From: Candidatus Hydrothermarchaeota archaeon | Lineage (GTDB): Archaea > CAYFZR01 | Assembly: GCA_046760505.1 (NCBI GenBank) | Contig: JBHIEG010000001.1 | Coordinates: 1 to 64,000, forward strand | Length of the DNA stretch: 64,000 bases | Direction of reading: 5' to 3' | Part shown: in pieces, positions 23,066-46,776 of the stretch | How positions within the stretch are numbered: position 1 is the stretch's first letter | Layout of the letters: each line of letters starts with the position of its first letter | Notes under the pieces: generated by a model | Database searches by the model: none | Told to the model about the DNA's origin: nothing | What the model saw: only the letters and a program-made list of their open reading frames with translations | Made by a program: the position numbers and the translations under genes

Positions 23066-23338
23066 TTTAAATGCCCCGAATTTTCAAATTATCTACTATT
23101 TTATAATTTTCTACTATTTTATACCTGTTACTATCTTTTGTTATCATCTTTTATACTTTCCTCGATTATCCTCTTTACGTGAATATTGCACATTTCCTAT
23201 TTCAATGATATTGGACTATGACATTAGACTATTAAACTATACCACCATGATAAATTCCACTTAGATTGGCTTAGAGAACTATAAAGGGGTTATAAGGGGT
23301 AATAAAAAGATATAAAGCAAAATTAAGTATGTTTAGTT

Positions 23339-24442
23339 TTACCTAAACTTCATGTTTTCGAATCTTCTTTTAAATTCCTCAATTTTCATGGCTTCTTCAT
23401 GTCTGCCAAGCTTTGACAATACCAAACCCTTTCCGAAAGCAGCTTCCCTGAAGTCCGGGTTGATCTTCAAAGCCTCATCAAAGCAATTTAAGGCCTCTTC
23501 AAATTTCCCAAGGCGCATTAGAGCCATTCCTTTGCCATGAAAGGCAGCCTCATCTTCTCTAATCTCTAAAATTTTGTCGAAGCATTCTATTGCCTCTTCG
23601 TTTCTTCCAATGTCTGTGAGGCATGATCCCTTCAATCCTAGAGCCTCTTGGCTTCTCGGATCTTCTTCCAGTGCTTTGTCTAGGCAATAAATAGCCTCCT
23701 CGAACAATCCTGAATCCGCTAGCGCAATTCCAGCATCTATCCATCTTCCGCCCTTTGGTATCTGGGATCTTAAAGCTCCTTCGTAAGTGCTCTCGATAAT
23801 TTCGCCACCTTCACCGAATGAGGGCATAAAATGACCCGGTAAGAGGTTTCTTACTTCCATTTTCAACAAATTTCTTATAGAGAAGAAATAACTTCTTAAA
23901 TCTCCGCCTAGGAGAGAATCCGGTTCTGGGAGATATATGGGTAATACTGTGTCTCCGGAAAAAAGGGTTTGAGTTTTTTCGTGATAGAGACAGATACAAT
24001 CTACCGTATGTCCAGGGGTATAGATCACCTTGAAATCATGTCCTCCTAGGTTAACCTCTTCTCCACCTCTTACTCCAATTACACTGCCTCTTCCCTCTGT
24101 AAACTTCTCAACTGCCTTGCTTAGCATTGTAGTTGATATATCATGAACTACTACCTCGATGTCTCTAAACCCTCCATATCTCATGAGAAGTTCTTTGAGG
24201 CCTAAAGTATGATCATTATGAGCATGAGTTAAAAAAATCTTTTTTATATCCTCTACCTTGAAACCCAATTCAAACAACTCAAAGAAAGCAGTTATGTCGT
24301 TCCCTGTGTCGACGAAAGCTAAATAATCGCCCTCTATAACGTATATGTTTGATGATTCTCCGTATCCCTCTAAAAACCAGATCGATGAGAGAAAGGGATC
24401 TTCAAAACCCGGGAAGATATCAATCAATTTAATCCAAGTCAT
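23339..24442 (-). CDS. Metallo-beta-lactamase-fold hydrolase fused to C-terminal TPRs
   Basis: VDTG, THAHNDH, TPGHT, LFSGDT, LLPGH; followed by about three TPRs. Confidence 0.88.
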   Translation of the reverse strand: MTWIKLIDIFPGFEDPFLSSIWFLEGYGESSNIYVIEGDYLAFVDTGNDITAFFELFELGFKVEDIKKIFLTHAHNDHTLGLKELLMRYGGFRDIEVVVHDISTTMLSKAVEKFTEGRGSVIGVRGGEEVNLGGHDFKVIYTPGHTVDCICLYHEKTQTLFSGDTVLPIYLPEPDSLLGGDLRSYFFSIRNLLKMEVRNLLPGHFMPSFGEGGEIIESTYEGALRSQIPKGGRWIDAGIALADSGLFEEAIYCLDKALEEDPRSQEALGLKGSCLTDIGRNEEAIECFDKILEIREDEAAFHGKGMALMRLGKFEEALNCFDEALKINPDFREAAFGKGLVLSKLGRHEEAMKIEEFKRRFENMKFR

Positions 24443-24754
24443 TTTGTATCAAACAGTTGATTTTCATCCCTCCATATAAACTTGTGCCATTCTTATGCAA
24501 TTTATATGGCACTCATTAAACCAACTATTGTAGTCCTAAGTTGGACATAAAACATTCGAGATTAAACCTTCTTTTAGAATTTAAAAACATATTATTCTTT
24601 TAAAAAATATATTTTTGAGAAATACTTTTTTTAAACTGATTTAATGCTTAAGGAATTTTAAATTTTTATGCTTTTACTATATAATATATATATTCAAAAA
24701 AAATAAGACTATTATAGTAGTGCTTCTAGTACAAGTATTCTTAATCATCGATCA

Positions 24755-24768
24755 TAAAGGTTTTATAT
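24755..24768 (+). promoter_or_regulatory. Archaeal BRE/TATA promoter of the CoA-transferase operon
   Basis: TAAAGG-TTTTATAT about 95 nt upstream of ATG 24862. Confidence 0.6.
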
Positions 24769-24788
24769 TAGAAGTGCTCAACATTAAG

Positions 24789-24861
24789 ATACCCCGAGGG
24801 AGTATACATGTATTCAAGATCACCTCCACAAGGGGTATAGGTATTTTTCGGAGGTGAATGG
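24789..24861 (+). promoter_or_regulatory. Structured 5' leader with an anti-SD element (candidate translational switch)
   Basis: ATACCCC(24789-95)/GGGGTAT(24832-38), GAGG/CCTC, hairpin GAGTAT-ACAT-GTATTC; TCACCTCC(24820-27) is complementary to the RBS GGAGGTGA(24850-57). Confidence 0.5.
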
Positions 24862-26334
24862 ATGGCGGAAAGAAAAATAGAGAAGTTTGAAGACACCCTT
24901 AGACCGAGACCATGGCCTATCAGGAAAATGCCGACTTTTGAAGAGTTATACGGAAAAGAAACAGGACCAGACAGGGCATACTCCGAATTCATGGAAGAAA
25001 ACCTACATGTGAGACATGCATACCGCAAGCCCTATCAATTGGGAGACATCAGGGTTCTAGACTGCTCAATATGGCGTAAAGCCCCGGCTGCATGTAGCTC
25101 TATGCTAGCAGAGCTGGGAGCCGAAGTCATCAAGATAGAACCTCCGGGCGGCGATCCATGGAGAAGGTTAACACCTTTCGGAAGAGAAGAGTACATGGTG
25201 GAGGACCAGTATACAGGCGAGAAAGTAGGTCTGGACTTCCTAAATGAGTGCAGAAACAAGTACTGTGTCACCTTAAACCTCGAGATGGAAGAGGGAAGAG
25301 AGATTCTTAAGAAAATGGTCAAGCAATCAGATGTATTGATAGAGAACTATCCTCCGGGTCAATTTGATGAGTGGGGCATTGGCTATAGACAGTTGTCCAA
25401 GATAAATCCAAGGCTTGTATATTGTTACATTGGACAACTCGGTCAATGGGGTCCAAGTAAAGATAGGGTAAGCAAATACGGACAGTGGATGCTAGATCCA
25501 TTCGCAGCGGCTGCATGTGAATTCATACACAGCACGGGATTCCCACCAGATCAGTTGCCAAGAGAGAGAGGAGGAAATCCCACTCGCTCAGGAGAATGGA
25601 ACAGCGAATGGCCTGGTGCAGAGCATGCATTCGTAGCGATTATGATGGCTCTATACGTAAGAGACGGTGTGGCAGGAACTCACATTGGTAAGGGACAATT
25701 CGTAGAGGTCGCAAGCGCTGAAGCATACCTAGAACTAAATGACTTTAACATTTGCTGGTACGGCTTTGACGGAAGTATAAAGGCAAGAACAGGAGGATGG
25801 GATCCAAATCTAAATCAGTATGCATGGAATCCGTGCGCGGATGGCTTCATGATGATTGGAGGACAGTCAGATAGGCTGTGGTACAGAATTGTACAGTGTA
25901 TAGAAAGGGACTACCCAGATTATGGACGTTTAGTAGGAGAAGATCCCATATTGAAGGAAATGGGAGCAAGAAATCAACTGGAGATGTTATGTAAGACCTA
26001 TACATTAACATCTTACTGGCTCGCGAGAAATCCAAGGGCAATGGCTGAGAAGAAACTCCTAGAATATGGTATTGCCGCGGGTCCATTGTTATACATAGAT
26101 GAGGTAGCAGAGTATCCGGACTTCATATACAGAGGTCACGTGCAAATGGTTGAGGACGAGCACTACGGCAATATCCTCGTTGCGAGACCACCTCTGGGAC
26201 ACCAGCACAGAGCTCCTGCGAGAATAAGATGGCTTGGAAGACCAGTAGGCTGGGATAACAACGAAATATACGCCAAACTCCTTGGAGTCGGTCCAGAAAC
26301 AATAAAAGAATGGAAGGAGAAGGGAATCATCTAA
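24862..26334 (+). CDS. Class III (CaiB/BaiF/Frc) CoA-transferase subunit A
   Basis: RVLD...[51 protein letters not shown]; Glu at the expected catalytic Asp position. Confidence 0.9.
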
Positions 26335-26337
26335 GGG

Positions 26338-27741
26338 GTGAAAGAAATGGAGGAAGAACTCGAAAAAATTCCGTTTGAGGAATATTGTAGAAAGGTATTC
26401 GATCCAAAGAAGGATTGGGAAAAACCTGAGGCACTAAAAGGCTGGAGACATCTTAGCCAAACGATGTACATCTTATCACCCCACGTAGGCGCTACACTAG
26501 GAGAATGGGGAGCAGAGGTCATAAAGATCGAGATGCCTAGGCTGGCAGACCCCATGAGGCATACATCTCCATTCAACGAAGCATATCTTTATCCTCTAAC
26601 CGATGAACGACCTATGACCGGAACAGGCTATGGATTCCTTCACGCCAACAGGAACAAGATAATGATGACCTTGGATTACCACCATCCCGAGGCGAAGGAA
26701 ATAATGCGGGACCTCTGGAGAATGTCGGACAGTCTAGCGGAGTGTTACCGTCCGGGTACATTTAACAGATGGGGCATAGGCTATCCTCAAGTATTAGAAG
26801 TTAATCCAGCCCTGATATACTGCTGGTTAGGAGGATTCGGAAGCCTCGGTCCCGGCAGAAGAAAAGGTTCATACGATATCCTAGGACAGAGTATAGGAGG
26901 ATTAGCAAGCATAACCGGACAGCACGAAGACGTTGTTAAGGTCGAAGACGAGTACCAGATCAAGTATGCGGGTGGCGGTTTCCCAGCAAAGCACACAAAC
27001 TGGATTATCGACTGGGTAGCAGGATTGATGTGCGCTTGCGGATTGGTAGCAGCAGGCTATTGGAGAAGAAAGACCGGCCTAGGAACTATGATCGACTTCT
27101 CTCAGGTTTCGGTATCGAACAGGTTTACGGGATATGGATTACCGCTCTATGGAAGATTTGGAGTTGTAAGACAGAGATGGGGTAACTGGGAGCCCCAGCT
27201 ATGTGTACATGGAATAATCATAGCGGGTAAATCTGATTTTCCAGACAGTGACAATCCTCAGGAAGCAGACGAAGCAAGATACCTGCTTGTAAGTGCCTTC
27301 CAAGACGAGGACTTCAAAGAACTCTGCGATTTAATAGGAAGAAAAGACCTGGCAGAAAAGTATGGAGAGGAGAAAGAAAGACTAAAGCCTCTGGCACAGA
27401 TGGAGATTTACGGGGCAGTGGAAAAATGGGCAAAAGATAAATCAAGAGCTGAGTGTGTAGAGGCTATTCAGGACAAAGGCCTGCTTGCATTTCCGGTAAT
27501 GAGTGCCGGAGATATATACAGATGGCCTCACATGTGGGAGAGAGGTAAGTTAAGATTCCTCGACGATCCAATATACGGTGACGTGTTGCAATCATGGGCC
27601 CCCGCATTGATGTCGGAGACCCCTCCAAGGGTCAAATGGGAATGCAGACCTCTGGGAGCAGATAATATAAAGATCTTGCATGACTTGCTCGGCATGCCCA
27701 TGGAAAAGATCAAAGAACTCTACGAGAAGGCGGTGATATAA
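26338..27741 (+). CDS. Class III CoA-transferase subunit B
   Basis: [48 protein letters not shown] (catalytic Asp retained). Confidence 0.9.
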   Translation: MKEMEEELEKIPFEEYCRKVFDPKKDWEKPEALKGWRHLSQTMYILSPHVGATLGEWGAEVIKIEMPRLADPMRHTSPFNEAYLYPLTDERPMTGTGYGFLHANRNKIMMTLDYHHPEAKEIMRDLWRMSDSLAECYRPGTFNRWGIGYPQVLEVNPALIYCWLGGFGSLGPGRRKGSYDILGQSIGGLASITGQHEDVVKVEDEYQIKYAGGGFPAKHTNWIIDWVAGLMCACGLVAAGYWRRKTGLGTMIDFSQVSVSNRFTGYGLPLYGRFGVVRQRWGNWEPQLCVHGIIIAGKSDFPDSDNPQEADEARYLLVSAFQDEDFKELCDLIGRKDLAEKYGEEKERLKPLAQMEIYGAVEKWAKDKSRAECVEAIQDKGLLAFPVMSAGDIYRWPHMWERGKLRFLDDPIYGDVLQSWAPALMSETPPRVKWECRPLGADNIKILHDLLGMPMEKIKELYEKAVI

Positions 27742-27742
27742 G

Positions 27743-28240
27743 ATGTGTGATATCATCGATTGTCCGAAGTGCAGAACTGTCAACTACATAGATCCCTACT
27801 GTTTCTGGAACTGGGGTCCGGGAGTAATTGCGTGCGCTGGCTGCGGCCAAGCCTACGAAGTCTACTATGTAAATGGCTTAATGCAAGAAGGATACCCAAA
27901 GGAAACGGATAAGGAACCTGACGAACTAGTACTGTATGCAGACAAGCCGCTGGAAGGCTACGAATTTATTCCTCCTGGTACGCCAGGAAAAACAAAGGCT
28001 TTCAGATGCTTGATGAGAAATCCAGAAACTTACACAGGAAAGGCAAGAAAGATAAGCCACAGCATAAGGGGAAAGCCCCTCAGGGGATGGGCTGGACAGA
28101 AACCCTCTGCTAAAGTAGCGGGATCTCACCACTACGATGACTCTGAGTACTGGAAACCAGAGGCAGGAGAACTCAAGTACTATCCGGAGTTACTAAAGAA
28201 CAAAGGACCACAAGAACCAGGTAAAGGGAGGGCTTGGTGA
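27743..28240 (+). CDS. Zn-ribbon-containing hypothetical protein
   Basis: CPKC...CAGC; starts 1 nt after the CoA-transferase B stop codon. Confidence 0.75.
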   Translation: MCDIIDCPKCRTVNYIDPYCFWNWGPGVIACAGCGQAYEVYYVNGLMQEGYPKETDKEPDELVLYADKPLEGYEFIPPGTPGKTKAFRCLMRNPETYTGKARKISHSIRGKPLRGWAGQKPSAKVAGSHHYDDSEYWKPEAGELKYYPELLKNKGPQEPGKGRAW

Positions 28241-28434
28241 TGGTTACTCAGGAAGAATTTGATGCAGCAAAGCATGTGTGTAAAACTTGCATGCACTTCA
28301 AGCCGATTATACCAGACACATTCCTGCCACCAGAGGACTTAATAGGCTACTGCAAAAAGATCCACTGGCCCTTCTTCTGGTGCATATCCAAGGATGACGT
28401 CATAACGGAGTGCTACGCGTACGAAAAGAAATAA
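28234..28434 (+). CDS. Small Cys-rich protein, candidate [4Fe-4S] subunit
   Basis: CKTCMHF.P...GYC...W...ECYAYEKK; coupled to the upstream gene; followed by a T-rich tract. Confidence 0.7.
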   Translation: MVMVTQEEFDAAKHVCKTCMHFKPIIPDTFLPPEDLIGYCKKIHWPFFWCISKDDVITECYAYEKK

Positions 28435-28591
28435 CTCTTTTCCTCCTAATTTTTTAAATATTAAAGCCTACTTTTAAGATAGTCGATAATCATGCCAAAA
28501 TTATTATATCAAAAACTAAATTACTATGCTAAACCTACATTTAGCCTAATTACACAAAAAACAATTGTATCAACAATTCGTGGTGAAGAAG

Positions 28592-29272
28592 ATGAATGAA
28601 GAAGAAAACGAGATAGAAATCGAGCGCAAAAAGGTAGCGAAAGAAGAAATTTCCGCGGTAAGAGAGATGGTAACCACTTGGAAGAAATGTTACATTGATA
28701 GATGGGAATTAGACGGTGAAGCAGTAGCAAACTTTGATTTTGAGATAGAGGAGTATATATACCCCTACGTAAGAAGATTATTTGATATGGGAATTTTAAC
28801 TCAATTCGAGGCTCAGGATCTATTAAATTATGCGGAAAGAGAACTAGCAGACTTAAGCAGAATAGTTGAGGCTAGAAAATCAATAGGCATTTCGAAGTTG
28901 GAATTCTACTATAATTCTAACGTAAAGCCAAGAGATGAGTACTACGTTGACATAGAAAATTGTCTAAGAATCATAAATGAGTTACGTGAATTAGGTATTG
29001 ATGCCAAAGGGATAGACACGGATTCAATAACTCCGAAAGAATTAGATGAAGTGTATAGATCAGTCATCTCGGCAACAAACGTAGATAAATCGATATTTAA
29101 CTCAGAAATAGATAAAGCATTCTTTGGTAACGAAGTGGCTGCAATTTTACTCTATGAGAAAAAAATGGATAAGAATCCCTGCGATGTGTTCCCCAAGAAG
29201 GATGAATCTGGAAAAACCATTGGATGTGAGGAGATCCTTAGACAAACCATAGAGCGATTGAAGAATTTATGA
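28592..29272 (+). CDS. Hypothetical protein
   Basis: Long ORF; ATG 28592 preceded by GGTGA. Confidence 0.7.
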   Translation: MNEEENEIEIERKKVAKEEISAVREMVTTWKKCYIDRWELDGEAVANFDFEIEEYIYPYVRRLFDMGILTQFEAQDLLNYAERELADLSRIVEARKSIGISKLEFYYNSNVKPRDEYYVDIENCLRIINELRELGIDAKGIDTDSITPKELDEVYRSVISATNVDKSIFNSEIDKAFFGNEVAAILLYEKKMDKNPCDVFPKKDESGKTIGCEEILRQTIERLKNL

Positions 29273-29387
29273 TTTTTTGTTGGAAGATTATTTCCCTCGA
29301 ATTTCTCTATAATTTTTTAAGTAAAATATGTCAACTTCACGAAACAGATAAATAAGATTGTTACAAGAGTTTGTAACGGTGGATTTG

Positions 29388-29660
29388 ATGCCAATACTAT
29401 CCCATCGAGAATACAGATTTTTAAGGGGCGAAGTATGGGATAACCGGAAAAAGAAGTGGATTCCAATTCATGAATCCAAAATGACAAAGAATTATCAAAG
29501 AGTAATGAAACACCGTATCAACAAGAAGGTAGCCTTAGCGATTAGTGATTTAATTATGTTGCTTCAGGATCCACTGATCGACATAGAAGAAATAAAGGTA
29601 GAGTTGGGAGAACTTATCTACGTAATAAACGAAATTTTACCATACATAAAAGGTTATTAA
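29388..29660 (+). CDS. Hypothetical small basic protein
   Basis: MPILSHREYRFLRG...NYQRVMKHRINKKV; GGTGG RBS. Confidence 0.6.
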   Translation: MPILSHREYRFLRGEVWDNRKKKWIPIHESKMTKNYQRVMKHRINKKVALAISDLIMLLQDPLIDIEEIKVELGELIYVINEILPYIKGY

Positions 29661-29732
29661 AATCTATTTTTAATTATCGATAATGCTATTAACCGAAAAC
29701 CTTATATAACCAAACTGTAATACTCAGGAGAG

Positions 29733-30164
29733 GTGATACGTATGCCACAAAAACTGCGTACTATTTGTTGCGGATATGACCCCATCCTGGTGAGGGGTTA
29801 TGTAAGAACTGGAGAGCAAGCTCTGTGGATTTACATGCCGAAGGAGCTCTACCAGGAGATGAACGTACCAACAAACACACCAGTTGAGCTGACCCTCCAT
29901 AAAGTCTATGATTACGAAGGTAATGTGGTAGCGGAGCCAGAAAAGAAGTATACATGGAATACCTCTAACAACAGTGGAATGAGTATCGTAATCCCTGGTG
30001 AAGTAATCACCGAGTTCAAGTTAACAGCCTGGCACTATCTAGAGCTAACCATTGAGAAAATAGGCGGAAAAGATGTATACCCCGGGGAGACAAAGGAACA
30101 GATGTGGCCAATGGAAAAAATCAAGAATCCCACCTGGCCTTACAGACTAACCTACGTAGAATAA
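29733..30164 (+). CDS. Hypothetical protein with two AbrB-like repeats
   Basis: ALWIYMPKELYQEMNV..VELTL and MSIVIPGEVITEFKL..LELTI; BRE/TATA CGAAAACCTTATATA and GAGGTGA upstream. Confidence 0.65.
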   Translation: MIRMPQKLRTICCGYDPILVRGYVRTGEQALWIYMPKELYQEMNVPTNTPVELTLHKVYDYEGNVVAEPEKKYTWNTSNNSGMSIVIPGEVITEFKLTAWHYLELTIEKIGGKDVYPGETKEQMWPMEKIKNPTWPYRLTYVE

Positions 30165-30181
30165 AAAACAGGTAGTATCAA

Positions 30182-31411
30182 GTGACAAGAAGGAGAGAGC
30201 CAGACAGGGGAGAAGGAATATTCTCCTGGATGAGGATGGACGAACCCCCAGAGGAAAAGTGGAAAAGAATAGAGGAAGAGATCGCGGAGGAAGAAGGTAA
30301 AACCTGGGTAAAATTAACAGATCTTGACGCCAACCTGGCGGACCCTTTTTTTTCTTATATTTGGTTCTTGGAGGGTTATGAAGAATCATCCAATATGTAT
30401 CTTATAGAGGGTGATTATCTAACTCTCGTTGACACAGGAAACGACATCTATGCTTTCTTTGAGTTGTTTGAACTGGGTTTTAAAGCAGAGGATATAAAAA
30501 AGATTTTTTTAACCCATGCTCACAACGATCATACCTTAGGCTTGATGGAACTCATGACCCGCTACGGCACATTTAAAGATTTCGAAGTAATTGTACACAA
30601 CTCGATGTCTACGGGTCTTCTTCCAAGAGCCATAGAACAAATGGCTAGAGGGGGAAAGGTAACTGGAGTAGATACTGGAGATACGGTAAATCTGAGCGGT
30701 CTTGATTTCAAAGTAATCTATACCCCCGGACATACCCAAGATTGCATTTGTCTTTATCACGAAAAAACTCAAACCCTTTTTTCTGGGGACACAGTGCTTT
30801 CGTTTGGTCTACCAACCCCTGATGAACGGATTGGGGGCAACTTACAAGACTATCTATTTTCCCTCAGGATCCTGTTGGAAGTGGACGTGAAACATCTTCT
30901 ACCGGGTCATGGCTTTCCTGAGTTCTTTACGGGAAAAAATGATGTTATGGGTACCTACCATGGCGTGATTCTTTCTCTCATACCGGAAGGGAGCACATGG
31001 ACCGAGGGGGCCATGGAACTAATGAAAAAAAACCTGCCTCATGAAGCAATCTTCTGCCTAAATAAAGCATTAGAAAAAGACGCTAATAATATACAAGCTC
31101 TGGGGTTGAAGGGATCATGCCTCACAGAGATTGGAAGAAACGAAGAGGCAATAGAATGCTTCGACAAAATTTTAGAGATTAGGAAAGATGAGGGAGCATT
31201 TTATAGTAAGGGAATGGCTCTAATAAAACTCAAGAGGCATGAGGAGGCTTTGGAATCTTTTGATGAGGCTTTGAAGATAAATCCAAGCTTTGAAGAGGCA
31301 AATGTGGGCAAAGGAATTGCCTTAATGGAACTTGGAAGGGAAGAGGAAGCGATGAAAATAGAGGCTTTCAAAAAGGCATTTGAATTATCTAAAGATTTTA
31401 CGAGTAAATAG
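30182..31411 (+). CDS. Metallo-beta-lactamase-fold hydrolase fused to TPRs (paralog of 23339..24442)
   Basis: THAHNDH, TPGHT, LFSGDT, LLPGH plus TPRs. Confidence 0.88.
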   Translation: MTRRREPDRGEGIFSWMRMDEPPEEKWKRIEEEIAEEEGKTWVKLTDLDANLADPFFSYIWFLEGYEESSNMYLIEGDYLTLVDTGNDIYAFFELFELGFKAEDIKKIFLTHAHNDHTLGLMELMTRYGTFKDFEVIVHNSMSTGLLPRAIEQMARGGKVTGVDTGDTVNLSGLDFKVIYTPGHTQDCICLYHEKTQTLFSGDTVLSFGLPTPDERIGGNLQDYLFSLRILLEVDVKHLLPGHGFPEFFTGKNDVMGTYHGVILSLIPEGSTWTEGAMELMKKNLPHEAIFCLNKALEKDANNIQALGLKGSCLTEIGRNEEAIECFDKILEIRKDEGAFYSKGMALIKLKRHEEALESFDEALKINPSFEEANVGKGIALMELGREEEAMKIEAFKKAFELSKDFTSK

Positions 31412-31433
31412 GTTTAGATAAGGTATTCAGCCA

Positions 31434-32462
31434 TCATTTCTTATGAAACCTTGAAACTCTAATCATTTCCGATATGCTCTCGACAGGAGTTTCTGCAGGA
31501 ACAACACAGCTCGAACTCAAGATGAAATTCCTGTCGGCTATTCCTATTAGCCTTTCCGACTCTTCTCTCACTTTCTCTTTTCCTTTCATCAAAACGTTTG
31601 TCACATCCAAGTTACCCCAGAAAACAATGTCTTCCCTAATATCTCTTGGAGATATTGAAGACTCTACGCTAAGACAATCAGCACCGATCTTTTCCACCAT
31701 TTCTAGTATATTTCTGGCATCTCCACATATGTGCAATATGGTGGGGACATCTATATCGGCGATCAACTTTTTCAGATAAGGAAGACAGAATTCTTTAAAA
31801 TGTGTCGGTGATATCAACGTTGAACTCGGCTCTTTAATTAAAATGCCATGTGCTCCCTTCTCTTCTTGTGCTTTTGAATAACTAAGAGAATACTGATAGG
31901 AAAAATCAAGGATTTCCTTTGCAAAATCTGGATTCAGAATCAGGTCCTCCAAGAAAAGCTCTAATCCACGAATCCATGTTCCTGCTAACGTAAAAGGTCC
32001 CAGTACATCTCCGCAGACAAAAACGTCTTTTTTCTCAAGCATTAAAGTTAGGGGTTCAGCCCTCTCTTCATTGTAAGGATCTGGAACATCCAGATCTCCA
32101 AGCATTTTATTTTCTAAAGCAGGTTTCTCGATTGAAATAGATCCTCTCTCTGGAACTCTTAGTATCGTGCCCAATTCAGTTTCTAGTAGCAGATAGTTAG
32201 GGAATTTTTTAATGGAATTCTTTTCTTTTTCTGTAATGCCCTGGATGGTCTGATGATTCCATATCCAGTCGTATCCGAGACTTTCTTGGCAATAGATCTG
32301 GGCTCGAGCGTACATCTCGTTATTAAGTACGTATTCAAATGTGGATATGCCTGAATACTTGGATGCAAAGGCTATGTTAATCATTGGGGCAACAGGAATG
32401 AAATCTGGCTCTTCTTTGTTTAAAACGCTCATCATCCTCTCATGGGAGTTCAACTCTTTCAC
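31434..32462 (-). CDS. MtaA/CmuA (URO-D family) corrinoid methyltransferase
   Basis: PDFIPVAP, GPFTLA, ISPTHFKEF..PY, ILHICG, WGNLD, ILSSSCVVP.ETP. Confidence 0.87.
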   Translation of the reverse strand: MKELNSHERMMSVLNKEEPDFIPVAPMINIAFASKYSGISTFEYVLNNEMYARAQIYCQESLGYDWIWNHQTIQGITEKEKNSIKKFPNYLLLETELGTILRVPERGSISIEKPALENKMLGDLDVPDPYNEERAEPLTLMLEKKDVFVCGDVLGPFTLAGTWIRGLELFLEDLILNPDFAKEILDFSYQYSLSYSKAQEEKGAHGILIKEPSSTLISPTHFKEFCLPYLKKLIADIDVPTILHICGDARNILEMVEKIGADCLSVESSISPRDIREDIVFWGNLDVTNVLMKGKEKVREESERLIGIADRNFILSSSCVVPAETPVESISEMIRVSRFHKK

Positions 32463-32508
32463 GATCTAAGTTTTAAATCTCAGGAGTTATATTAAGTTTG
32501 GGAATAAC

Positions 32509-33591
32509 ATGCGGAAAATCGGTATGAGAAAAGGCAAGCGTAGGGCAATAAACACGGTGGGTGAGATAAGTAAAGTTTTCGAAAAATCAGCTCATGAAAA
32601 ACGGTACGAAATAGAGATTAAAAAAATCCATGACAAAAATCCCCTTTGTAGATTAGTATGCGATCACGAAATAGGAGATAAAATGGAAAGAATTATTTAC
32701 CTGGTTCTTTTTCCATGGAGGGCAGAATTAGAGAGAGAAAATTTTGAGAAAGATGTTTACACATTGCTGAGATTAGAGAATGAGGAGTTAGAAGGGGCTC
32801 AAAGACACATGTACTTCCAATCCATCCAAGGTAAGTATCCTATTAGGAGCATGGAACTCTGGCTAGATAACAGAGGCCGGGCAAGACAAATTTCGAGAGA
32901 AGAAATATATTATTTCACCCTTATAGATAAGAAAAAGGAATTTTTCGAGAGATATGAAAGAGGAGCAATACCACCTAGGTTAAGTAAAGGTAAAAGAAGT
33001 GAGCCTGATATGGTGAGCGAGAAAAGAATCAGAAGTTTTATTGATATGTCTGAGAAATGGAGCGCAGACATAGTTTTAGACGTTGCAGCGGGTGTTAAAG
33101 ATTACATAAAAAAACTAATTGAAAGAAATTTTTTCGTAATTTGTGCTAACATTTCTTTTTCCTCACTAAAGAGCGTAAGAGACTCTTTTTCCGAAAAAAA
33201 TCTTGCCTTCTTAGTTTATGATGCCGATAAACGCTTGCCCTTCAAAGAGAACTCGTTTAACTACGTAATCTGCGATGCAGTCCTTGAGTATCTTCTCGAC
33301 CCAGTCTCATTCATCCGGCAAATTTCTGACTTACTACCATACGGCGGAGAGATGCTTCTCCTTGAGCCCATTAGATCAAAAGTAAAAGATGATTTCTATC
33401 CTCAGGATATGTGGGAGCTTGCCTTGTGGAGACCTTTGTACGATCCTCATTTCAACTTCGAAATTGTTCAGGAAAACCTTAAAAAATCTGGTTTTGAAGT
33501 AATAGAGAGAAGAGAGCTGGAATTTAGTTATTCTATATATGATGAGGAATTTTTCAGACAATCCATTTCCAGATGCCTTAAGATGGATTAA
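32509..33591 (+). CDS. Class I SAM-dependent methyltransferase-like protein with an extra N-terminal domain
   Basis: VLDVAAG, YDADKRLPFKENSFNYVIC..VLEY, LLPYGGE. Confidence 0.75.
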   Translation: MRKIGMRKGKRRAINTVGEISKVFEKSAHEKRYEIEIKKIHDKNPLCRLVCDHEIGDKMERIIYLVLFPWRAELERENFEKDVYTLLRLENEELEGAQRHMYFQSIQGKYPIRSMELWLDNRGRARQISREEIYYFTLIDKKKEFFERYERGAIPPRLSKGKRSEPDMVSEKRIRSFIDMSEKWSADIVLDVAAGVKDYIKKLIERNFFVICANISFSSLKSVRDSFSEKNLAFLVYDADKRLPFKENSFNYVICDAVLEYLLDPVSFIRQISDLLPYGGEMLLLEPIRSKVKDDFYPQDMWELALWRPLYDPHFNFEIVQENLKKSGFEVIERRELEFSYSIYDEEFFRQSISRCLKMD

Positions 33592-33675
33592 TTGGGTTAG
33601 CAACTAAATCATAGTTATATTTTAGAAATCATACCGTTAACATTATATTCTCAAAACAAAGAAAAGTTATCAAGC

Positions 33676-34857
33676 GTGATAACAATGCTTGGGGTCGTTG
33701 ATGTTTCTTATTATAGTGAGGTTAAAGAATTAGAGAGTATTCGTCTCTTATACCAATATAATGCCAGTTTATGGGACAGATGGGCCAAGCATGTTAGAAA
33801 AGGAGGAAAAGTTGTTGGAACCTTAGCATGTCCTCCAACAGAATTACTGAATGCTTATGATGTATTTACCATAGTCTACAAGAGGCGTGAAGACCTGAAT
33901 AGAGCGATCATAAAGGGAGACTACGAATTGAAGAAGTGGATCAGTCACTTTGGCGTGGGAGAATGTATCTGTCGCAACATAAGTGGGGGAGCAGGATCTC
34001 CAATTCTTGGCGCTTCTCCTGGTTATAATCTTGTAGTTACAGATTTCGTTGAAAAAGTACCGGAATGGTACTATTTTTTAAAAAAAATTGGCAACGAATG
34101 GAATTTTGAATTTTTAGAAATTGAAAGAGGTCTGAGCAGGAGAGAGAGGGAAGAGATTATCTACGATAGGTTGCTCTATTTGAATGATTTGTTAATTCAA
34201 TTAACAGGTGAGAAGGTCTCCGAAGACAGGATAGTCGAGAGTTGCGAAATGACAAACGAGATTAGTTTAGTATTCCAAGAAATCGATACGCTTATAAGAA
34301 AATCTCATCCTCTGAGGAGTTTTGATGTCTACAACCTCAAGGTCATATGCACGGATTATGTTGGCGGCGAAGTTGATGCAATCTTGGACTTGTGCTATCG
34401 TTTGATAGAGGAACTGAAAACCAAGTTAAAAGAGGCAGAAAGAAGAGAGGCAAAAAGACTTCTTCTTGTAGGGGGATTCAGAAACGAATTTTTGGAGCCA
34501 ATAGAGCGTAATGGCGGTATTGTTACAGCGGCATGGCCATATCAACGGTTTACATCTCATAGAACCCCAATTAAAATAAGATCTGACGTATTCAGGTCAC
34601 TCGCCAGATGGATATCCAATCACTCTGGAATAGGAACACCTAGAGAAGACGCTTTGGATATGAAGGATATGATAAAAACCTACGAAATCGATGGAGTTAT
34701 ATACCACAAGCAGTGTCCCTTCGGGATTAAAGCGGTATACGAATCCTACAAGGATATAAGGGATTCAATAAAAATTCCATTCCTCACCATAAACCCTGAA
34801 GAGTGCAACGTTGAGAACAAAATTCGAGAATTTCTGCTTGCTCTACATGAAACCTGA
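33676..34857 (+). CDS. 2-hydroxyacyl-CoA dehydratase (HgdA/B, BcrB/C) family subunit, divergent
   Basis: GGKVVGTLACPPTELL.A, CIC, LTGEKVSEDRI, RLLLVG, IERNGG.V, IDGVIYHKQC, IPFLTI. Confidence 0.75.
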   Translation: MITMLGVVDVSYYSEVKELESIRLLYQYNASLWDRWAKHVRKGGKVVGTLACPPTELLNAYDVFTIVYKRREDLNRAIIKGDYELKKWISHFGVGECICRNISGGAGSPILGASPGYNLVVTDFVEKVPEWYYFLKKIGNEWNFEFLEIERGLSRREREEIIYDRLLYLNDLLIQLTGEKVSEDRIVESCEMTNEISLVFQEIDTLIRKSHPLRSFDVYNLKVICTDYVGGEVDAILDLCYRLIEELKTKLKEAERREAKRLLLVGGFRNEFLEPIERNGGIVTAAWPYQRFTSHRTPIKIRSDVFRSLARWISNHSGIGTPREDALDMKDMIKTYEIDGVIYHKQCPFGIKAVYESYKDIRDSIKIPFLTINPEECNVENKIREFLLALHET

Positions 34858-34867
34858 AGGGCTCTTG

Positions 34868-36373
34868 ATGGAAAAAATCAAGGTCAAATTCATTGGAGAC
34901 TCCCTGAGAAATCCAGTATCTGTCAAGGTAAAACGAGGGACCTCAGTTCTAGATGCAGCAATCAAAGGAGGAGTAGAAATTGATGCTCCGTGTGGTGGAA
35001 AAAATAGGTGCGGAAAATGCATCGTTAAGGTAAACTCTCAGCGTGTTCTGGCTTGCTCCACCAAGATCTTTCATGATATCATTGTAGAAGTAGAGAGCCA
35101 AACTGCTAGAATTTTAAAAGATCTCGCTATATCGAATTTTGAGGTAAACCATTCTTTTCGCATTAAAAATTTGGATGGTTCATCTGTTTTGATGAGAGAT
35201 GGAGAGATATTGGGATATACCAACGATTTATACGGAGTTTCACTTGATATAGGAACTACAACTCTCTCGGGATATCTTGTAGACCTTAAAAATGGAGTTC
35301 TAATGGATAAAAAATCCATTACCAATCCTCAAGTATCCTTTGGTGCTGATGTGATATCAAGAATTTCCTACGCAATAAAAAACGGAAGGCATGAGCTCAC
35401 TAATTTTCTTCTAAAAGGTATCAATCAACTCATAAGAGAACTCTGCAAGAATGATGTTGACCCCAGTAGTATTTACTACTCTACCGTTGTGGGGAATTCA
35501 GTTATGCATCATTTTTTACTTGGTCTAGACACCAAGAATCTTGGTTTTTATCCGTACAAACCCCTCATTAAAAAAGGCACAGAAAAAAAAGCAAAGGACA
35601 TTGGAATAAGTATAAACCCCTCAGGATACGTATATTTCTTGCCCCTAGTCAACGGCCACGTGGGTAGCGATGCCCTGGGCATGATCATCGCTCTTGAGAT
35701 TCATAAATCAAATGAAACCTGTTTGGCGATAGATCTCGGAACCAATGGCGAGATCATTATAGGCAATAAGAAGAAAATACTCGCTTGTTCTTCCGCGGCA
35801 GGTCCTGCTTTCGAGGGCACCAATATTTCAAGCGGCATGAGGGCTACTGACGGTGCAATAGAACGTGTATGGAAAAATTTTGGATACAAAACCATAGGTA
35901 ATAAACCAGCAAGGGGAATATGCGGCTCTGGCTTAATAGATGCGATTGCTGAAATGCTAAAATCTGGCATAATAAATAGAAATGGAAAGTTGCTTAAGGA
36001 ATTCAGCATTGGAGGGATCAGAATAACCCAGAGAGATATAAGGGAATTCCAACTTGCAAAGGCAGCTATTAGAACAGGAATAGACATCCTTGTAAACATG
36101 CTTGAACCTCCAAAAAAAATTTACATTTCCGGGGCTTTTGGTAACTATATAGATAGAGAAAACGCAATTTACTTGGGCTTGCTCCCTCAATCCAAGCATA
36201 TATTCTATGCAGGAAATGCAGCTGGTCTTGGGGCGATTAAATCTATGTTGTCCGATTCGATAAAAAAAGAGGCTGAAGAAATTGCGGAAAAAATTGAATA
36301 CATAGAGTTATCTACTCAACCGGAGTTTGAATCGATATTCATGAAGAACATAAGGTTCGGAGAATATGCTTAG
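34868..36373 (+). CDS. ATP-dependent reductive activator of corrinoid proteins (RACE/RamA-like, DUF4445 ASKHA) with N-terminal [2Fe-2S] domain
   Basis: CGGKNRCGKC...LAC; DIGTTT; NPQ..FGADVISRI; DLGTNGE; AAGPAFEG; GICGSG; TQRDIREFQLAKAAI. Confidence 0.92.
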   Translation: MEKIKVKFIGDSLRNPVSVKVKRGTSVLDAAIKGGVEIDAPCGGKNRCGKCIVKVNSQRVLACSTKIFHDIIVEVESQTARILKDLAISNFEVNHSFRIKNLDGSSVLMRDGEILGYTNDLYGVSLDIGTTTLSGYLVDLKNGVLMDKKSITNPQVSFGADVISRISYAIKNGRHELTNFLLKGINQLIRELCKNDVDPSSIYYSTVVGNSVMHHFLLGLDTKNLGFYPYKPLIKKGTEKKAKDIGISINPSGYVYFLPLVNGHVGSDALGMIIALEIHKSNETCLAIDLGTNGEIIIGNKKKILACSSAAGPAFEGTNISSGMRATDGAIERVWKNFGYKTIGNKPARGICGSGLIDAIAEMLKSGIINRNGKLLKEFSIGGIRITQRDIREFQLAKAAIRTGIDILVNMLEPPKKIYISGAFGNYIDRENAIYLGLLPQSKHIFYAGNAAGLGAIKSMLSDSIKKEAEEIAEKIEYIELSTQPEFESIFMKNIRFGEYA

Positions 36374-36980
36374 GGAGGCAATTGTAGAAGGGAAAATCAA
36401 TGAGATAGAGGAAATAATAAGAGATCTTTTAAAAAGTGAGAATCCAAACTCAATACTAAAAGAAATGATCAAAGCGATGGAAATAGTAGGAGATTTGTTT
36501 GAAAAAAAAGAGTATTACGTTCCAGAAGTCCTTCTTTCTGCCCATACAATGCAGAAAGGTCTAAACATCTTAAAACCCCATTTAGTTGTAGAAGAAGTTA
36601 ATGTCCCGGGAAAGGTGCTCATAGGATCTGTCGAGGGAGACGTCCATGATATAGGAAAAAATCTTGTAGCGATGTTTTTAGAGGGATCAGGCTTTGAAGT
36701 CCATGATTTAGGTAGGGATGTGCCCATATCGAAGTTCATCGAGAAAACAAAGGAAATTGAGCCTGATATTTTGGCCCTTTCAGCCCTCATGACAACCACA
36801 ATGGAAAAGATGAGGGAGACAATAGAGAGACTCAGAAAAGAGGGATTGAGAGAAAAGGTTAAGGTAATAGTGGGTGGAGCATCTGTTACAGAAGAGTTCG
36901 CTAAAGAAATAGGGGCTGATGGATATGCTGAAGATGCAGTCAAGGCAGTTAGCCTTTGCGAGAAGTTAATGAAAGGTTGA
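36366..36980 (+). CDS. Methyltransferase cognate corrinoid protein (MtaC/MtbC-like)
   Basis: EGDVHDIGKNLV, DLGRDVP, SALMTTTM, VIVGGA, IGADGYAEDA. Confidence 0.95.
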   Translation: MLREAIVEGKINEIEEIIRDLLKSENPNSILKEMIKAMEIVGDLFEKKEYYVPEVLLSAHTMQKGLNILKPHLVVEEVNVPGKVLIGSVEGDVHDIGKNLVAMFLEGSGFEVHDLGRDVPISKFIEKTKEIEPDILALSALMTTTMEKMRETIERLRKEGLREKVKVIVGGASVTEEFAKEIGADGYAEDAVKAVSLCEKLMKG

Positions 36981-36991
36981 ATTTTTAAGTA

Positions 36992-37957
36992 TCACCCAGA
37001 AGAGTCAGCGAGCCTTCCAGCCTCTACGAAGATTTTGAGTCTTTCTGGAGGAGTATCCATCCTTATATGAGACCCTGTGCTCAGAATAAACCCTTTTTTA
37101 CCGATTTTGTGGACTAGATCCGATACCTCATTTACAATACCGTTTTTTTCCTGTCTAATTAATCTTTCAGGGCTATAATTTCCCATTATCGGTCTTTTTT
37201 TTATCTTTGAAATATCGGTATGCTCAGAAAAACTGGGTACTGACCTTAGAGATAAGAATTCTCTCATTATCGGGCTAGGGTCTCCACAAATGTGCAATAT
37301 CGCGTCTCCCTTAATTTTCTTTAGGATTTTTTTTTGAAAAGGATAGGAATACCTCTTATATACCTGAGAAGAGATGATATCGGGATTCGATGCTGAGTCT
37401 AAAATGAATATAGCGTCTGCGTAGTCTAATTGGACGTTAGCACAGTTTGATACAAATTCAGCAGATATTTTCAACCACTCTTTTACCATATCTGGCTCTG
37501 AGAGTATTTTTATCAAAAAATCCTCCAGTTCAAACATCCATGTCGCGCAGAATGTAAATGGTCCCAGTACTGTGCCGCATATAAACCCTGAGGTTCTTTT
37601 CCTTAAATCTTCTAGCACTTTGTTTCTTAAATCATAAAATTCAAAACTAGAGTTATGTTTAGAGACCCACGGATACCCTTTCTTTGGTACGGTTATTTGA
37701 ATTCCCAATTCAGTTTCAAATATCATATTGTCTCCAGCTATTTTTCCTTCAAAAGCAAACTCGTAGAACCAGTCTTTCCATAGCCAGTCGTAGCCGAAGT
37801 AATTTTTGGATTCGATCAAAATGTCCGCGTATACTTTAGGGTTGTTTAGGACTTTTCTTAGATCAATTCCCATTGCTGAAGCCAGATAACCAACATCCAC
37901 CAATGGCGCTACCGGTAACTTTTCGTTCCTGTTATTTATAGCATCCTTCAGACTCAT
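36992..37957 (-). CDS. Second URO-D/MtaA-family methyltransferase
   Basis: LPVAP, FGYDWLW, ETELG, GPFTF, ILHICG, ILSTGSHI..DTP; the upstream part of the track ORF is probably not coding. Confidence 0.82.
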   Translation of the reverse strand: MSLKDAINNRNEKLPVAPLVDVGYLASAMGIDLRKVLNNPKVYADILIESKNYFGYDWLWKDWFYEFAFEGKIAGDNMIFETELGIQITVPKKGYPWVSKHNSSFEFYDLRNKVLEDLRKRTSGFICGTVLGPFTFCATWMFELEDFLIKILSEPDMVKEWLKISAEFVSNCANVQLDYADAIFILDSASNPDIISSQVYKRYSYPFQKKILKKIKGDAILHICGDPSPIMREFLSLRSVPSFSEHTDISKIKKRPIMGNYSPERLIRQEKNGIVNEVSDLVHKIGKKGFILSTGSHIRMDTPPERLKIFVEAGRLADSSG

Positions 37958-38116
37958 GCTTTTCAATGATATGCCTCTTTTTATTTTTTGGTTTATTATA
38001 TTTACTGAAGGGAAGTTTTTTATAATCTTAGATGAAAACCCTTCGTGCCCCTTAAAAAAGAAAGATATGTGGAGCACGAAAAACAAAATAAGTAAAAACA
38101 CACAAGTATAAGTAGA

Positions 38117-38506
38117 ATGGAGAATAAGATAAAAAGCAATGAGACAAGAAGTAATAAAACAGACGAAAGCGATATGAAGAAGAATATGATAAATAAAGAT
38201 AGAATACAAGACCGAACAGCTATTGAATGGTATGAAATAGGATCTTCACTCTACAACTCCGGTAAATATGAGGAGGCGATAATCTGTTTTGATATTGCAC
38301 TTAAAATAAATCCTGAACACTATCCTTCTTTAAACGGTAAGGGAAAGGCCTTGGTTCAACTTGGAAAATTCAGAGAATCACTGGTTTTTTTCGGTAAAGC
38401 GCTTGAAATCTTTCCCGAACTCGAAGATGCAAAGCTATATAAAAAACTAGCCTTGAAAGAACTGTACAAAATCTACCAAAAAGGCTCTTGCAGGTCTGTA
38501 GAATGA
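38117..38506 (+). CDS. Small TPR protein (paralog of 22742..23065)
   Basis: WYEIG..LYNSGKYEEAI.CFD.AL.INP; C-terminal ALKELY..Y...SCR. Confidence 0.8.
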   Translation: MENKIKSNETRSNKTDESDMKKNMINKDRIQDRTAIEWYEIGSSLYNSGKYEEAIICFDIALKINPEHYPSLNGKGKALVQLGKFRESLVFFGKALEIFPELEDAKLYKKLALKELYKIYQKGSCRSVE

Positions 38507-38670
38507 GATGGATTGATTGGGAGAATTAATTTCTCCAATTAAAGAGTTATGTTGAGTAAAATGAGTTCTCACCACCCCTTACAGAATTAAGTTAGTTTAT
38601 CAAAACCGTTATATATTTACTTGCAAAAATATACAAATCTCAAAAAATAGCCTATGGGAGGGTTCACTGA

Positions 38671-39213
38671 TTGGACTATGTAATAGATAAAAGAACCGGT
38701 AAACCCATTGAAGTAAAGGTCAAATGGGCATCGTGGGAAGATAAGAGGTATTTAATCAACAGTGAGAGATGGAAAAAATCTGTTTTTGGCGGATGGCGAG
38801 GTATAGTGAATGACGGATACAACATTCGCGTATTAACTCACAAAGAGACCGGCGAAGTTCTAGGAGCTTACGCCTTTTCGATCCACAAGGAAAAAGGCTA
38901 TCTGTTCATAGACTACATCGAATCGATCGTTAAAGATGAAATAAAGTACATAGGTACAACACTGATGAAAGACGCCGTAAAACAAGCATTTCAATGCGGT
39001 TTTAAAGGTCGTGTGAGACTTATATCAAGGTGGACGAAAGAAGAGACTCAGGCTCCAGAGAAGTTTTTCCTGAAGATCGGAATGGAAAAAGAAGTGGGAA
39101 ATATACACTGCCTTGATGCAAACATACATTACTGGAACTTTTCTTTTGATGAAGAAAGTGCAAAAAAGTTTTTAGAAAAATGCGATGAGCTTCTATCGAA
39201 TAAAAATAATTAG
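38671..39213 (+). CDS. GNAT-like acetyltransferase
   Basis: LFIDYIES...KYIGTTLMKDAV...GFKGRVRL...APEKFFLKIGM resembles GNAT motifs A and B. Confidence 0.6.
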   Translation: MDYVIDKRTGKPIEVKVKWASWEDKRYLINSERWKKSVFGGWRGIVNDGYNIRVLTHKETGEVLGAYAFSIHKEKGYLFIDYIESIVKDEIKYIGTTLMKDAVKQAFQCGFKGRVRLISRWTKEETQAPEKFFLKIGMEKEVGNIHCLDANIHYWNFSFDEESAKKFLEKCDELLSNKNN

Positions 39214-39232
39214 CACATATACCCTTAAACCA

Positions 39233-40192
39233 TCATCTTTTTAATTTCTGAAAAATCTTTTGAACTCTTTCTATCAAATCCTCTCTTATTTCTTTTTTCT
39301 CAATTTTTCCAGGATCTTCTTCTTGTTTGTACTCAATTTCTGCTAGTTCACAAATAACACCATAGATTGCTTGCTCCGCAACCTTAATAACCGATCCACC
39401 ACTCAGAATATAAAGTAATTTACCGTTACATACACTTTTAGCGTTTAATTTCAAGATCCTTGTGAATTTAGGATAAAATTCCCAACTCAACTTAAATGAG
39501 CCGTAATCGAGGTAATGGGAATCGTGTCCGAAAATAACCATTATCATCTCAGGATTAAACTTTTTTGTGAGTACAGGCACGATGGAATCTACCACGTAAA
39601 GGAATTCATTGTCCACTATATCTCGAGGTAGGGGAAAATCTATATTTTTGTTATGTAAATCAACCCTTTCCTCTGTTCCTCCATGAAAATTCAGGTGAAA
39701 AACCTCTTTATCCTGTTCAAAAAAATCCCTAGTTCCGTCACCAAAATGGGGATCGATGTCAACTATGAAGAATTTATTAACTCCATAATTTTTTCTTAGA
39801 TATTCAACCAATATTGCTACGTCATTGAAAAAACAAAAGCCCCAGGCACTCTCTTTACTTGCATGGTGTCCTGCTGTGCCGACGTATGCGAAGGCATTTT
39901 CAAATTCTCCTCTAATCAGAGATTCTCCACACACCAAGACGCTACCAGCGGATAGCAAGGCGATGTCGAAGTAATCTGTAGCCATTACGCTTGAGATGTG
40001 CTTTCCACTATGAACTTTCTTCAAGAGATCAAGAGAGACAGGTGAGGGTTTTCTAACATGAATATTATTTTTATCAGTAAGTGATTTAGCCTTTAAGTAA
40101 TCAAACGAGGGATTCACTCTATATTTGGTTGTCCAGTATCCGTGTTTTCCAAAATCTTCATGGTACGATATCAAGGTCTTTTTAATCGCCAT
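39233..40192 (-). CDS. Histone deacetylase / acetoin-utilisation (AcuC/AphA) family
   Basis: VHS, AGHHA, GFCFFNDVA, DIDPHFGDGT, GHDSH, SGG. Confidence 0.9.
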   Translation of the reverse strand: MAIKKTLISYHEDFGKHGYWTTKYRVNPSFDYLKAKSLTDKNNIHVRKPSPVSLDLLKKVHSGKHISSVMATDYFDIALLSAGSVLVCGESLIRGEFENAFAYVGTAGHHASKESAWGFCFFNDVAILVEYLRKNYGVNKFFIVDIDPHFGDGTRDFFEQDKEVFHLNFHGGTEERVDLHNKNIDFPLPRDIVDNEFLYVVDSIVPVLTKKFNPEMIMVIFGHDSHYLDYGSFKLSWEFYPKFTRILKLNAKSVCNGKLLYILSGGSVIKVAEQAIYGVICELAEIEYKQEEDPGKIEKKEIREDLIERVQKIFQKLKR

Positions 40193-40275
40193 ATAAACGG
40201 GCCTTGATAGTTTTCTAAAAGAAATGTGAGTAGTTTTAATCTTGCCCTCCTCTCCAAGCTTAGTTATTTAAAATT

Positions 40276-41157: not shown

Positions 41158-41158
41158 A

Positions 41159-44274: not shown

Positions 44275-44431
44275 ACCAGTTACATGGTATTAATATTATT
44301 TAACCCAATGATTTAAAAAAGCTGACGGATCTTATTCAACACCTACATTAATTGAGTGATCAATTTTTTAATTAAGAAATGTGGAGAAAATCACCCCAAG
44401 ATTTTTTTACCATTAATATCGAAATAGAGCC

Positions 44432-44590
44432 ATGACGTACTGGATCTGTATTGAATGCAGACACACATACAAGGCTGAGACTCGAGTGGAAAAGTGTCCT
44501 GAATGCGGTGCATCAAAGGATATGCAGGGAAAACTACCTGAAACAACGCTGTTCGAGATGATAGCAGAATGGAAAATGGATGAACATTAA
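44432..44590 (+). CDS. Rubredoxin-like small protein, 52 aa; not in the ORF track
   Basis: Hand translation MTYWICIECRHTYKAETRVEKCPECGASKDMQGKLPETTLFEMIAEWKMDEH. Confidence 0.7.
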   Translation: MTYWICIECRHTYKAETRVEKCPECGASKDMQGKLPETTLFEMIAEWKMDEH

Positions 44591-44640
44591 AAAAATATTG
44601 AAAATAACAATGCTCACTTTTATTAAGGACTCACAGGTTA

Positions 44641-44907: not shown

Positions 44908-44986
44908 AATATTCCTCCTGTTTTCCTGACAATTTGGAATCTTATACTACTATAAAAGTTTTTTTAGACATCGATTTCGGATGAGG

Positions 44987-46726: not shown

Positions 46727-46776
46727 GAGAAAAGATATTTAATGCTGATTATTTAAGTTTGGTGCAAGGTTTAGAA

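Follow-up and report, generated by a model that had tools for sequence, protein, structure and literature searches.

A candidate SD-masking leader ahead of a CoA-transferase operon in one archaeal genus

The window, by which we mean the whole 64,000-nt stretch of DNA that was analysed, contains a two-gene operon of family III CoA-transferases preceded by a putative leader of about 73 nt at positions 24789-24861 (Table 1). The genome of the window is called G000 and the congeneric genome with which it was compared G001; loci from the metagenome and genome-collection scans carry L-numbers. The protein of the first gene is 86% identical in G001 and 29% identical to that of the second gene, its paralog. 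Formyl-CoA transferases were the best solved relatives of the transferases (E 5.6e-25 for the first protein), and the two-subunit benzylsuccinate CoA-transferase was also among these relatives.

Table 1. Genes and sequence elements of the CoA-transferase operon and its upstream region
Feature	Position	Strand	Remarks
Conserved block with direct repeat ATCAT-N2-ATCAT	24730..24759	+	Nearly invariant between G000 and G001; candidate transcription-factor site
Putative archaeal BRE/TATA (AAAGG and TTTTATAT)	24755..24768 (TTTTATAT at 24761-24768)	+	Identical in G001
P1 5' arm AUACCCC	24789..24795	+	Inverted repeat; at or adjoining the predicted transcript start (24789-24791)
Purine-rich decoy GAGGGAG (anti-anti-SD)	24796..24802	+	Predicted to pair with CCUC/CUCC of the anti-SD (P2)
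Variable apical hairpin	24800..24815	+	GAGUAU (24800-24805), loop ACAU, GUAUUC (24810-24815)
Anti-SD UCACCUCC	24820..24827	+	Inverted repeat; exact complement of the operon's SD
P1 3' arm GGGGUAU	24832..24838	+	Inverted repeat with the P1 5' arm
U-run block UAUUUUUC	24842..24849	+	Just 5' of the SD; invariant in G001
SD GGAGGUGA	24850..24857	+	4 nt before the ATG at 24862; invariant in G001
First gene, family III CoA-transferase subunit, 490 aa	24862..26334	+	Pfam CoA_transf_3, E 9.3e-71
Second gene, paralogous family III CoA-transferase subunit, 467 aa	26338..27741	+	Pfam CoA_transf_3, E 5.9e-71

The CoA-transferase cluster is flanked by genes for two paralogous proteins that combine a metallo-beta-lactamase domain with TPRs (23339-24442 on the minus strand and 30182-31411 on the plus strand). 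Further downstream lies a methyl-transfer set (31434-36980) with URO-D/MtaA-like, methyltransferase, HGD-D-like, RACo-type corrinoid activase and B12-binding proteins. Synteny between G000 and contig C64 of G001 is broken in the region 23290-47367, where 23290-31393 is inverted relative to 32995-47367 and the stretch between them, 31393-32995, has no counterpart on that contig.

As sampled, the phylum of G000 consists of 2 genomes of one genus. The G000 genome has 2.17 Mb and 38% G+C, and its partial 16S rRNA gene has 59% G+C. A growth optimum near 74 C was estimated from proteome composition with a linear formula, and the host, an uncultured archaeon, is probably thermophilic. The 16S gene is cut at model position 825 in G000, and none was found in G001. 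Because the 3' tail of the 16S rRNA is absent from the assembly, the use of SD sequences in this organism rests on the GGAGG motifs found before genes.

A putative promoter, whose BRE/TATA function is suggested by its position and the archaeal consensus, lies upstream of the leader. By the position of its TATA box alone, the transcript would start near 24789, the TATA-to-start distance in archaea being about 26 nt. Across 308 genes of the genome, TATA-like hexamers peak at -40 to -36 from the start codons, with 42 against about 20 per 5-nt bin in AT-rich upstream regions and with crude gene calls. By this peak, leaders may be very short or missing in many first genes, and a 73-nt leader would then be unusual.

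The layout of the leader is defined by two inverted repeats, both of which were recovered independently as perfect, of 7 nt and 8 nt, by a repeat finder. The arms of the shorter one, P1, are 100% complementary and 36 nt apart in both genomes. The longer one consists of the anti-SD and, 22 nt away within the same putative leader, the SD, which are 100% complementary over 8 nt. Between the arms of P1, a second helix, P2, can be drawn by pairing GAGG of the decoy (24796-24799) with CCUC of the anti-SD (24823-24826), and the register that pairs GGAG (24799-24802) with CUCC (24824-24827) is equally good. The apical hairpin has 6 pairs, of which 2 are G-U. Every element named in a preliminary description of this DNA was found where it had been placed, both by reading the sequence and by the independent recovery of the repeats. 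The same description remarked that the GC-rich stems stand out in an AT-rich intergenic region, and the G+C content is indeed 44% in 24785-24854 as against 11-20% in the upstream spacer (24540-24749).

The repeat finder reported a third inverted repeat, between the U-run block at 24842-24849 and GAAAAAUA at 24872-24879 inside the first gene. The helix would consist of A-U pairs throughout and would enclose the SD and the ATG; its downstream strand corresponds to codons 4-6. In G001, a synonymous AGA-to-AGG change in this strand turns one U-A pair into U-G, as judged by eye.

The combination of these elements is rare in the genome. The motif GGAGGTGA occurs 72 times in G000, both strands counted, and in the 2.17 Mb there are 2 places where GGAGGTGA comes within 8-100 nt after TCACCTCC, namely in the leader and on contig C90. 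On this 2.9-kb contig the two motifs are 28 nt apart (approximately 1110-1160) and lie between ORFs on opposite strands. For comparison, we inspected the 60-70 nt upstream of 336 GGAGG-led ORFs of at least 100 codons for complements of the SD. Three of the 336 have upstream a stretch of 8 nt or more that is perfectly complementary to the SD window, compared with 0.2 per shuffled set, and in seven the SD is preceded by a perfect, GC-rich repeat of 7 nt or more that resembles P1. If the two features are assumed to be independent, both would be expected together in one leader in about 0.06 genes of the 336. In the other two genes with an SD complement of at least 8 nt, the complement lies, by eye, upstream of a TATA-like box in one and at the apparent end of the preceding gene in the other; the former is therefore probably outside the transcript. 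A DNA search of the leader against its own genome matched the leader itself alone, so it is single-copy.

The only other genome in which the leader was found is G001; a metagenome contig (L009) has the G001 leader without a single difference. In blastn alignments of G000 with G001, identity was 85% in the leader, 85% in the promoter block, 70% in the spacer further upstream and 82% in the coding sequence. The four-fold degenerate sites of the gene were identical at 101 of 161 positions (63%).

Differences within the leader are unevenly placed. Of the 63 leader columns that precede the SD, 18 are changed between the two genomes, and the P1 core and the anti-SD, which together take up 20 columns, contain none of these 18. 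The hypergeometric probability of changes avoiding the helices in this way was 0.0002, or 0.0055 with hand-placed gaps and 0.016 when the variable hairpin block was left out. The anti-SD is invariant and lies within an 11-nt invariant block, so that its complementarity to the SD is kept in the orthologous leader of G001, the one available for comparison, with no compensatory change involved. The GGGAG of the decoy is also kept. Six of the seven P1 pairs are unchanged; GGGGUA is invariant and the final U is replaced by A, with the loss of the terminal A-U pair. The apical hairpin differs more: by eye, it has a shorter GAGU/ACUC stem with another loop in G001, and its third pair changes from G-U to G-C. 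No compensatory double change was seen in any helix between G000 and G001. Since the main helices are invariant, this speaks neither for nor against them. From this comparison of two sequences, we conclude that the helix-forming stretches of the leader are under constraint. Conservation of DNA cannot separate RNA helices from protein-binding sites.

For two other spacers in the gene cluster, 28241-28564 and 29661-29732, identity to G001 reaches 82% and 88%, the level of coding sequence, so the level of identity alone does not make the leader unique. A 66-aa ORF at 28234-28434 may explain the conservation of the first of these spacers.

These figures bear on the simplest alternative, in which the complementarity arose by chance and the leader is conserved through the closeness of the genomes or through causes unrelated to helices, with no regulatory structure at all. 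Several results agree with it. Folding of the whole leader was ordinary, with a z score of -1.20 and 22 of 200 shuffled sequences folding at least as well. The predicted probability that the SD pairs with upstream bases was equally ordinary, ranking 88th of the 336 genes at 37 C, 157th at 55 C and 85th at 70 C. In addition, the 85% identity of the leader resembles that of the coding sequence and of the two spacers, the comparison involves a single genome, and the other two long SD complements lie upstream of a TATA-like box and at the apparent end of a preceding gene. The alternative is harder to reconcile with the expectation of about 0.06 genes for the joint occurrence of the two repeats, with the avoidance of the helices by the changed columns, and with an identity of 63% at neutral four-fold sites. 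We regard it as unlikely.

The same conservation could be explained at the level of DNA. The blocks GATACCCC, GGGAGTA, ATCACCTCCAC and AGGGGTA would then be transcription-factor operators downstream of the transcript start, acting together with the conserved block at 24730-24759. In the whole spacer, the strongest conservation is indeed promoter-proximal, at 24730-24768; in 20-nt bins, identity to G001 was 0.80-0.95 in 24720-24759 as against 0.60-0.70 further upstream. An 18-nt direct repeat in G000 links the two parts, with 14 of 18 nucleotides identical between 24730-24747 and 24805-24822 in the leader hairpin, and invariant blocks that lack compensatory changes resemble protein sites. However, the second copy of this repeat is lost in G001 (approximately 8 of 18 matches by eye), and one block is exactly complementary to the SD. 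The arms of the inverted repeat are also unusually distant for a dimer site, since such sites do not usually have arms 36 nt apart. Operator sites within the leader are not favoured, and we consider control by them distinctly unlikely as the explanation of the leader.

Another possibility is that the anti-SD is the complement of a ribosome-binding site that serves a micro-ORF on the minus strand. In both genomes a start codon, ATG in G000 and GTG in G001, lies 10 nt after the minus-strand GGAGGTGA, and the encoded peptides have P-x-G-Y-L in common. This common part is forced by the conserved P1 arm, however, and the residues before it differ between peptides of 13 and 8 aa. The start codon is also farther from the GGAGG core than it is in the CoA-transferase gene, and no minus-strand promoter was evident by eye. 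The minus-strand peptide that the preliminary description had named as a competing explanation proved not to be conserved, with 13 aa from an ATG in G000 as against 8 aa from a GTG or 12 aa from a TTG in G001. A real gene at this site is unlikely, and we consider it very improbable that such a gene accounts for the anti-SD.

For the RNA, we compared two folds in nested-structure prediction. Fold A consists of P1 and P2 and leaves the SD free. In fold B the P1 5' arm and the decoy form a local hairpin, and the anti-SD is paired with the SD. The predicted energies of folds A and B in G000 were -17.0 and -21.8 kcal/mol at 37 C, -9.86 and -10.54 at 55 C, and -5.25 and -4.57 at 70 C. In G001 they were -15.1 and -19.3, -9.11 and -9.95, and -5.14 and -4.46, respectively. 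The two folds are thus nearly isoenergetic in both genomes, with differences that at high temperature do not exceed the error of the energy model. In both, the masked fold leads at 55 C, by 0.7-0.8 kcal/mol, and at 70 C the open fold leads by 0.7 kcal/mol; these values are within model error and are to be set against a growth temperature that is itself an estimate. The apical hairpin is energetically weak and is absent from the MFE structure of G001.

Predictions for the growing chain gave P1 and P2 as the MFE structure of its first 50-66 nt. Completion of the SD turns the predicted structure into fold B at 37 C, whereas fold A is the MFE structure at every length from 50 to 92 nt at 70 C. The barrier of the direct path between the folds falls from approximately 21 kcal/mol at 37 C to approximately 11 kcal/mol at 70 C.

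The preliminary description had proposed two competing folds, and this has to be divided. P2 and the SD do compete for CCUCC. P1 and the anti-SD:SD helix cross, and therefore are not mutually exclusive in space. The two helices could coexist as an H-type pseudoknot, for which loops of 24, 4 and 11 nt present no steric difficulty by rules of thumb.

The predicted stability of P1 and P2 raises the question of whether they form a static stem-loop at the 5' terminus, for example against decay that depends on the 5' end, with the anti-SD locked and the SD constitutively free. Stems at the 5' end may have a protective role in archaea. P1 begins at the predicted first nucleotides of the transcript, and P1 with P2 is the MFE structure at 70 C, near the estimated growth temperature, at all lengths examined. 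In L014 and L015, two loci of another lineage, the predicted 5' end likewise bears a GC-rich hairpin, after which come a U-run and an SD; neither locus has an anti-SD. A static stem leaves unexplained, however, why its loop should hold an exact and invariant 8-nt complement of the SD inside an 11-nt invariant block. Moreover, its advantage over the masked fold at 70 C is just 0.7 kcal/mol and is reversed at 55 C. We think this alternative somewhat unlikely.

We tentatively prefer a genus-specific leader that masks the SD and thereby tunes or switches translation of the first transferase subunit, a reading that we consider plausible. The structured 5' leader of approximately 73 nt would act in cis on translation initiation of the CoA-transferase mRNA. 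Base pairing of the 8-nt anti-SD with the 8-nt SD would hide the SD from the small ribosomal subunit. In the other state, the GGGAG decoy and the GC clamp of P1 (UACCCC/GGGGUA) would hold the anti-SD instead and leave the SD free. The clamp-and-decoy fold is predicted to form first in transcription, and the SD might then invade via the unpaired UCA of the anti-SD. The balance between masked and open states would set the amount of the first subunit. Candidate triggers are temperature, a protein or a metabolite; alternatively, the leader may provide a fixed damping of translation that has no trigger. The masking effect is suggested by complementarity, by rarity and by conservation in one congener. 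Two genomes of one genus carry the leader, and we regard it as a candidate and a reasonable lead. Cis-acting translational control through mRNA structure is familiar from bacteria and has little documentation in archaea. If the masking reading is true, the leader would be a compact archaeal case of SD masking at high temperature, built from an anti-SD, a decoy and a clamp, with a possible use as a gene-control part for thermophilic archaea.

The preliminary description went further and suggested an ON/OFF translational switch. The two near-isoenergetic predicted folds, one with the SD masked and one with the SD free in each genome, are in keeping with this suggestion. A metabolite-sensing riboswitch, one form of which would be an H-type pseudoknot whose P1-hairpin loop captures the SD on binding of a CoA thioester, an organic acid or another ligand, would fit the crossing of P1 with the anti-SD:SD helix, a layout of several known translational riboswitches. 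It would also fit the constant spacing of the P1 arms and the metabolic context of the genes. On the other hand, the junctions and loops that would form the pocket are the variable parts of the leader. There was no match to Rfam, and the leader occurs in one copy per genome, in 2 of 401 archaeal genomes searched with a loose pattern. The conserved aptamer and the covariation across many taxa or several genes that characterize riboswitches were not found in this single-copy leader with its invariant helices. We judge a metabolite-sensing riboswitch to be quite improbable. A shade less probable still is a new archaeal class of translational riboswitch or thermosensor from a thermophilic phylum of which very little has been sampled, in which the clamped hairpin loop would mimic the ribosomal anti-SD and capture the SD in a pseudoknot, and in which a CoA-ester metabolite or temperature would shift the balance against the decoy.

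The remark of the preliminary description that validated archaeal riboswitches are very rare agrees with a passage of PMC8241225, according to which the fluoride riboswitch of Thermococcus kodakarensis is the sole natural archaeal riboswitch determined by experiment.

We compared the leader with known systems of SD control. A likeness to the SAM-III riboswitch (SMK box, RF01767), which the preliminary description had put forward, exists insofar as SAM-III is a translational element regulated through a helix between the SD and an anti-SD upstream of it, and such a helix is predicted here. It did not extend to the family, since the leader gave no match to the RF01767 model at E up to 10 and has no conserved junction nucleotides. 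The SAM-III family precedes SAM synthetase (metK) genes of Lactobacillales, in contrast to the archaeal CoA_transf_3 pair found here. The likeness is one of principle, that of an anti-SD in the leader. The riboswitches that form H-type pseudoknots (SAM-II, preQ1 and fluoride) likewise have a 5' hairpin loop complementary to a 3' tail that bears the SD. The leader differs from them in having no covariance-model match, much longer loops (24, 4 and 11 nt), variable pocket parts and a nested alternative, P2, that competes.

RNA thermometers such as ROSE and FourU mask the SD by pairing that weakens with temperature, and for G000 and G001 alike the masked fold of the leader has the lower predicted energy at 37 and 55 C, with the open fold ahead at 70 C, a shift no larger than the uncertainty of the energy model. 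The known thermometers are single hairpins whose imperfect pairing melts easily, whereas the leader has a perfect GC-rich helix of 8 bp set against a second fold, in a host that is probably a thermophile. The leader also resembles translational attenuators of the erm and cat type in having four segments, namely the P1 5' arm, the decoy, the anti-SD with the P1 3' arm, and the SD. Classical attenuator leaders alternate between 1:2 with 3:4 pairing and 2:3 pairing; here 1:2 plus 3:4 would be the masked state, and pairing of 1 and 2 with 3 the open state. Unlike the leader, erm and cat attenuators need a translated leader peptide. A leader-peptide mechanism was considered and rejected, because G001 lacks a start codon for the 10-codon plus-strand ORF of G000 (ATG at 24808, 5 nt after GGGAG).

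Scans against Rfam used stretches of 601 nt (24400-25000) and 101 nt (24780-24880) of the window and a 301-nt stretch containing the G001 leader. With 4227 families, among them SAM-III, the pseudoknot riboswitches and the thermometers, and E up to 10, none of the three gave a relevant match, and at the gathering thresholds the leaders of G000 and G001 likewise matched no family. When consensus sequences were compared by eye, neither a K-turn (the site of L7Ae) nor a TGM-type operator fitted the leader.

A covariance model (R1) built from the two sequences with 9 pairs, run on 4 genomes, returned two self-matches and one 23-bit match that covered the ribosome-binding block alone. Of 401 archaeal genomes, 13 matched a loose structural pattern. 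Two of these are G000 and G001, and the other 11 are at about the rate of the reversed control, which gave 19 matches. The best-looking match outside the two genomes (L026) lies inside a coding region.

The metagenome scan yielded 2 loci, the second of which (L010, 61% identity) begins at residue 16 of the gene and so carries no leader sequence. Seven loci came from the genome-collection scan: L011, which is the G001 contig, L012-L015 with different leaders, and the distant L016 and L017 (36%). Orthologous or paralogous operons with 66-75% protein identity, in two metagenome-assembled genomes of another lineage, have different leaders in which no anti-SD was found. The comparison of orthologous leaders that the preliminary description had called for thus gave a divided result, with the stems kept within the genus and absent from the more distant orthologous operons.

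The leaders of this other group show features of their own. The GC-rich hairpins of L014 and L015, each with its U-run and SD, lie at 2925-2990 in both loci, and an A-U pair is replaced by G-U between them. Tandem SD motifs precede a TTG start in these two regions, as well as in L012 (2030-2065) and L013 (260-290).
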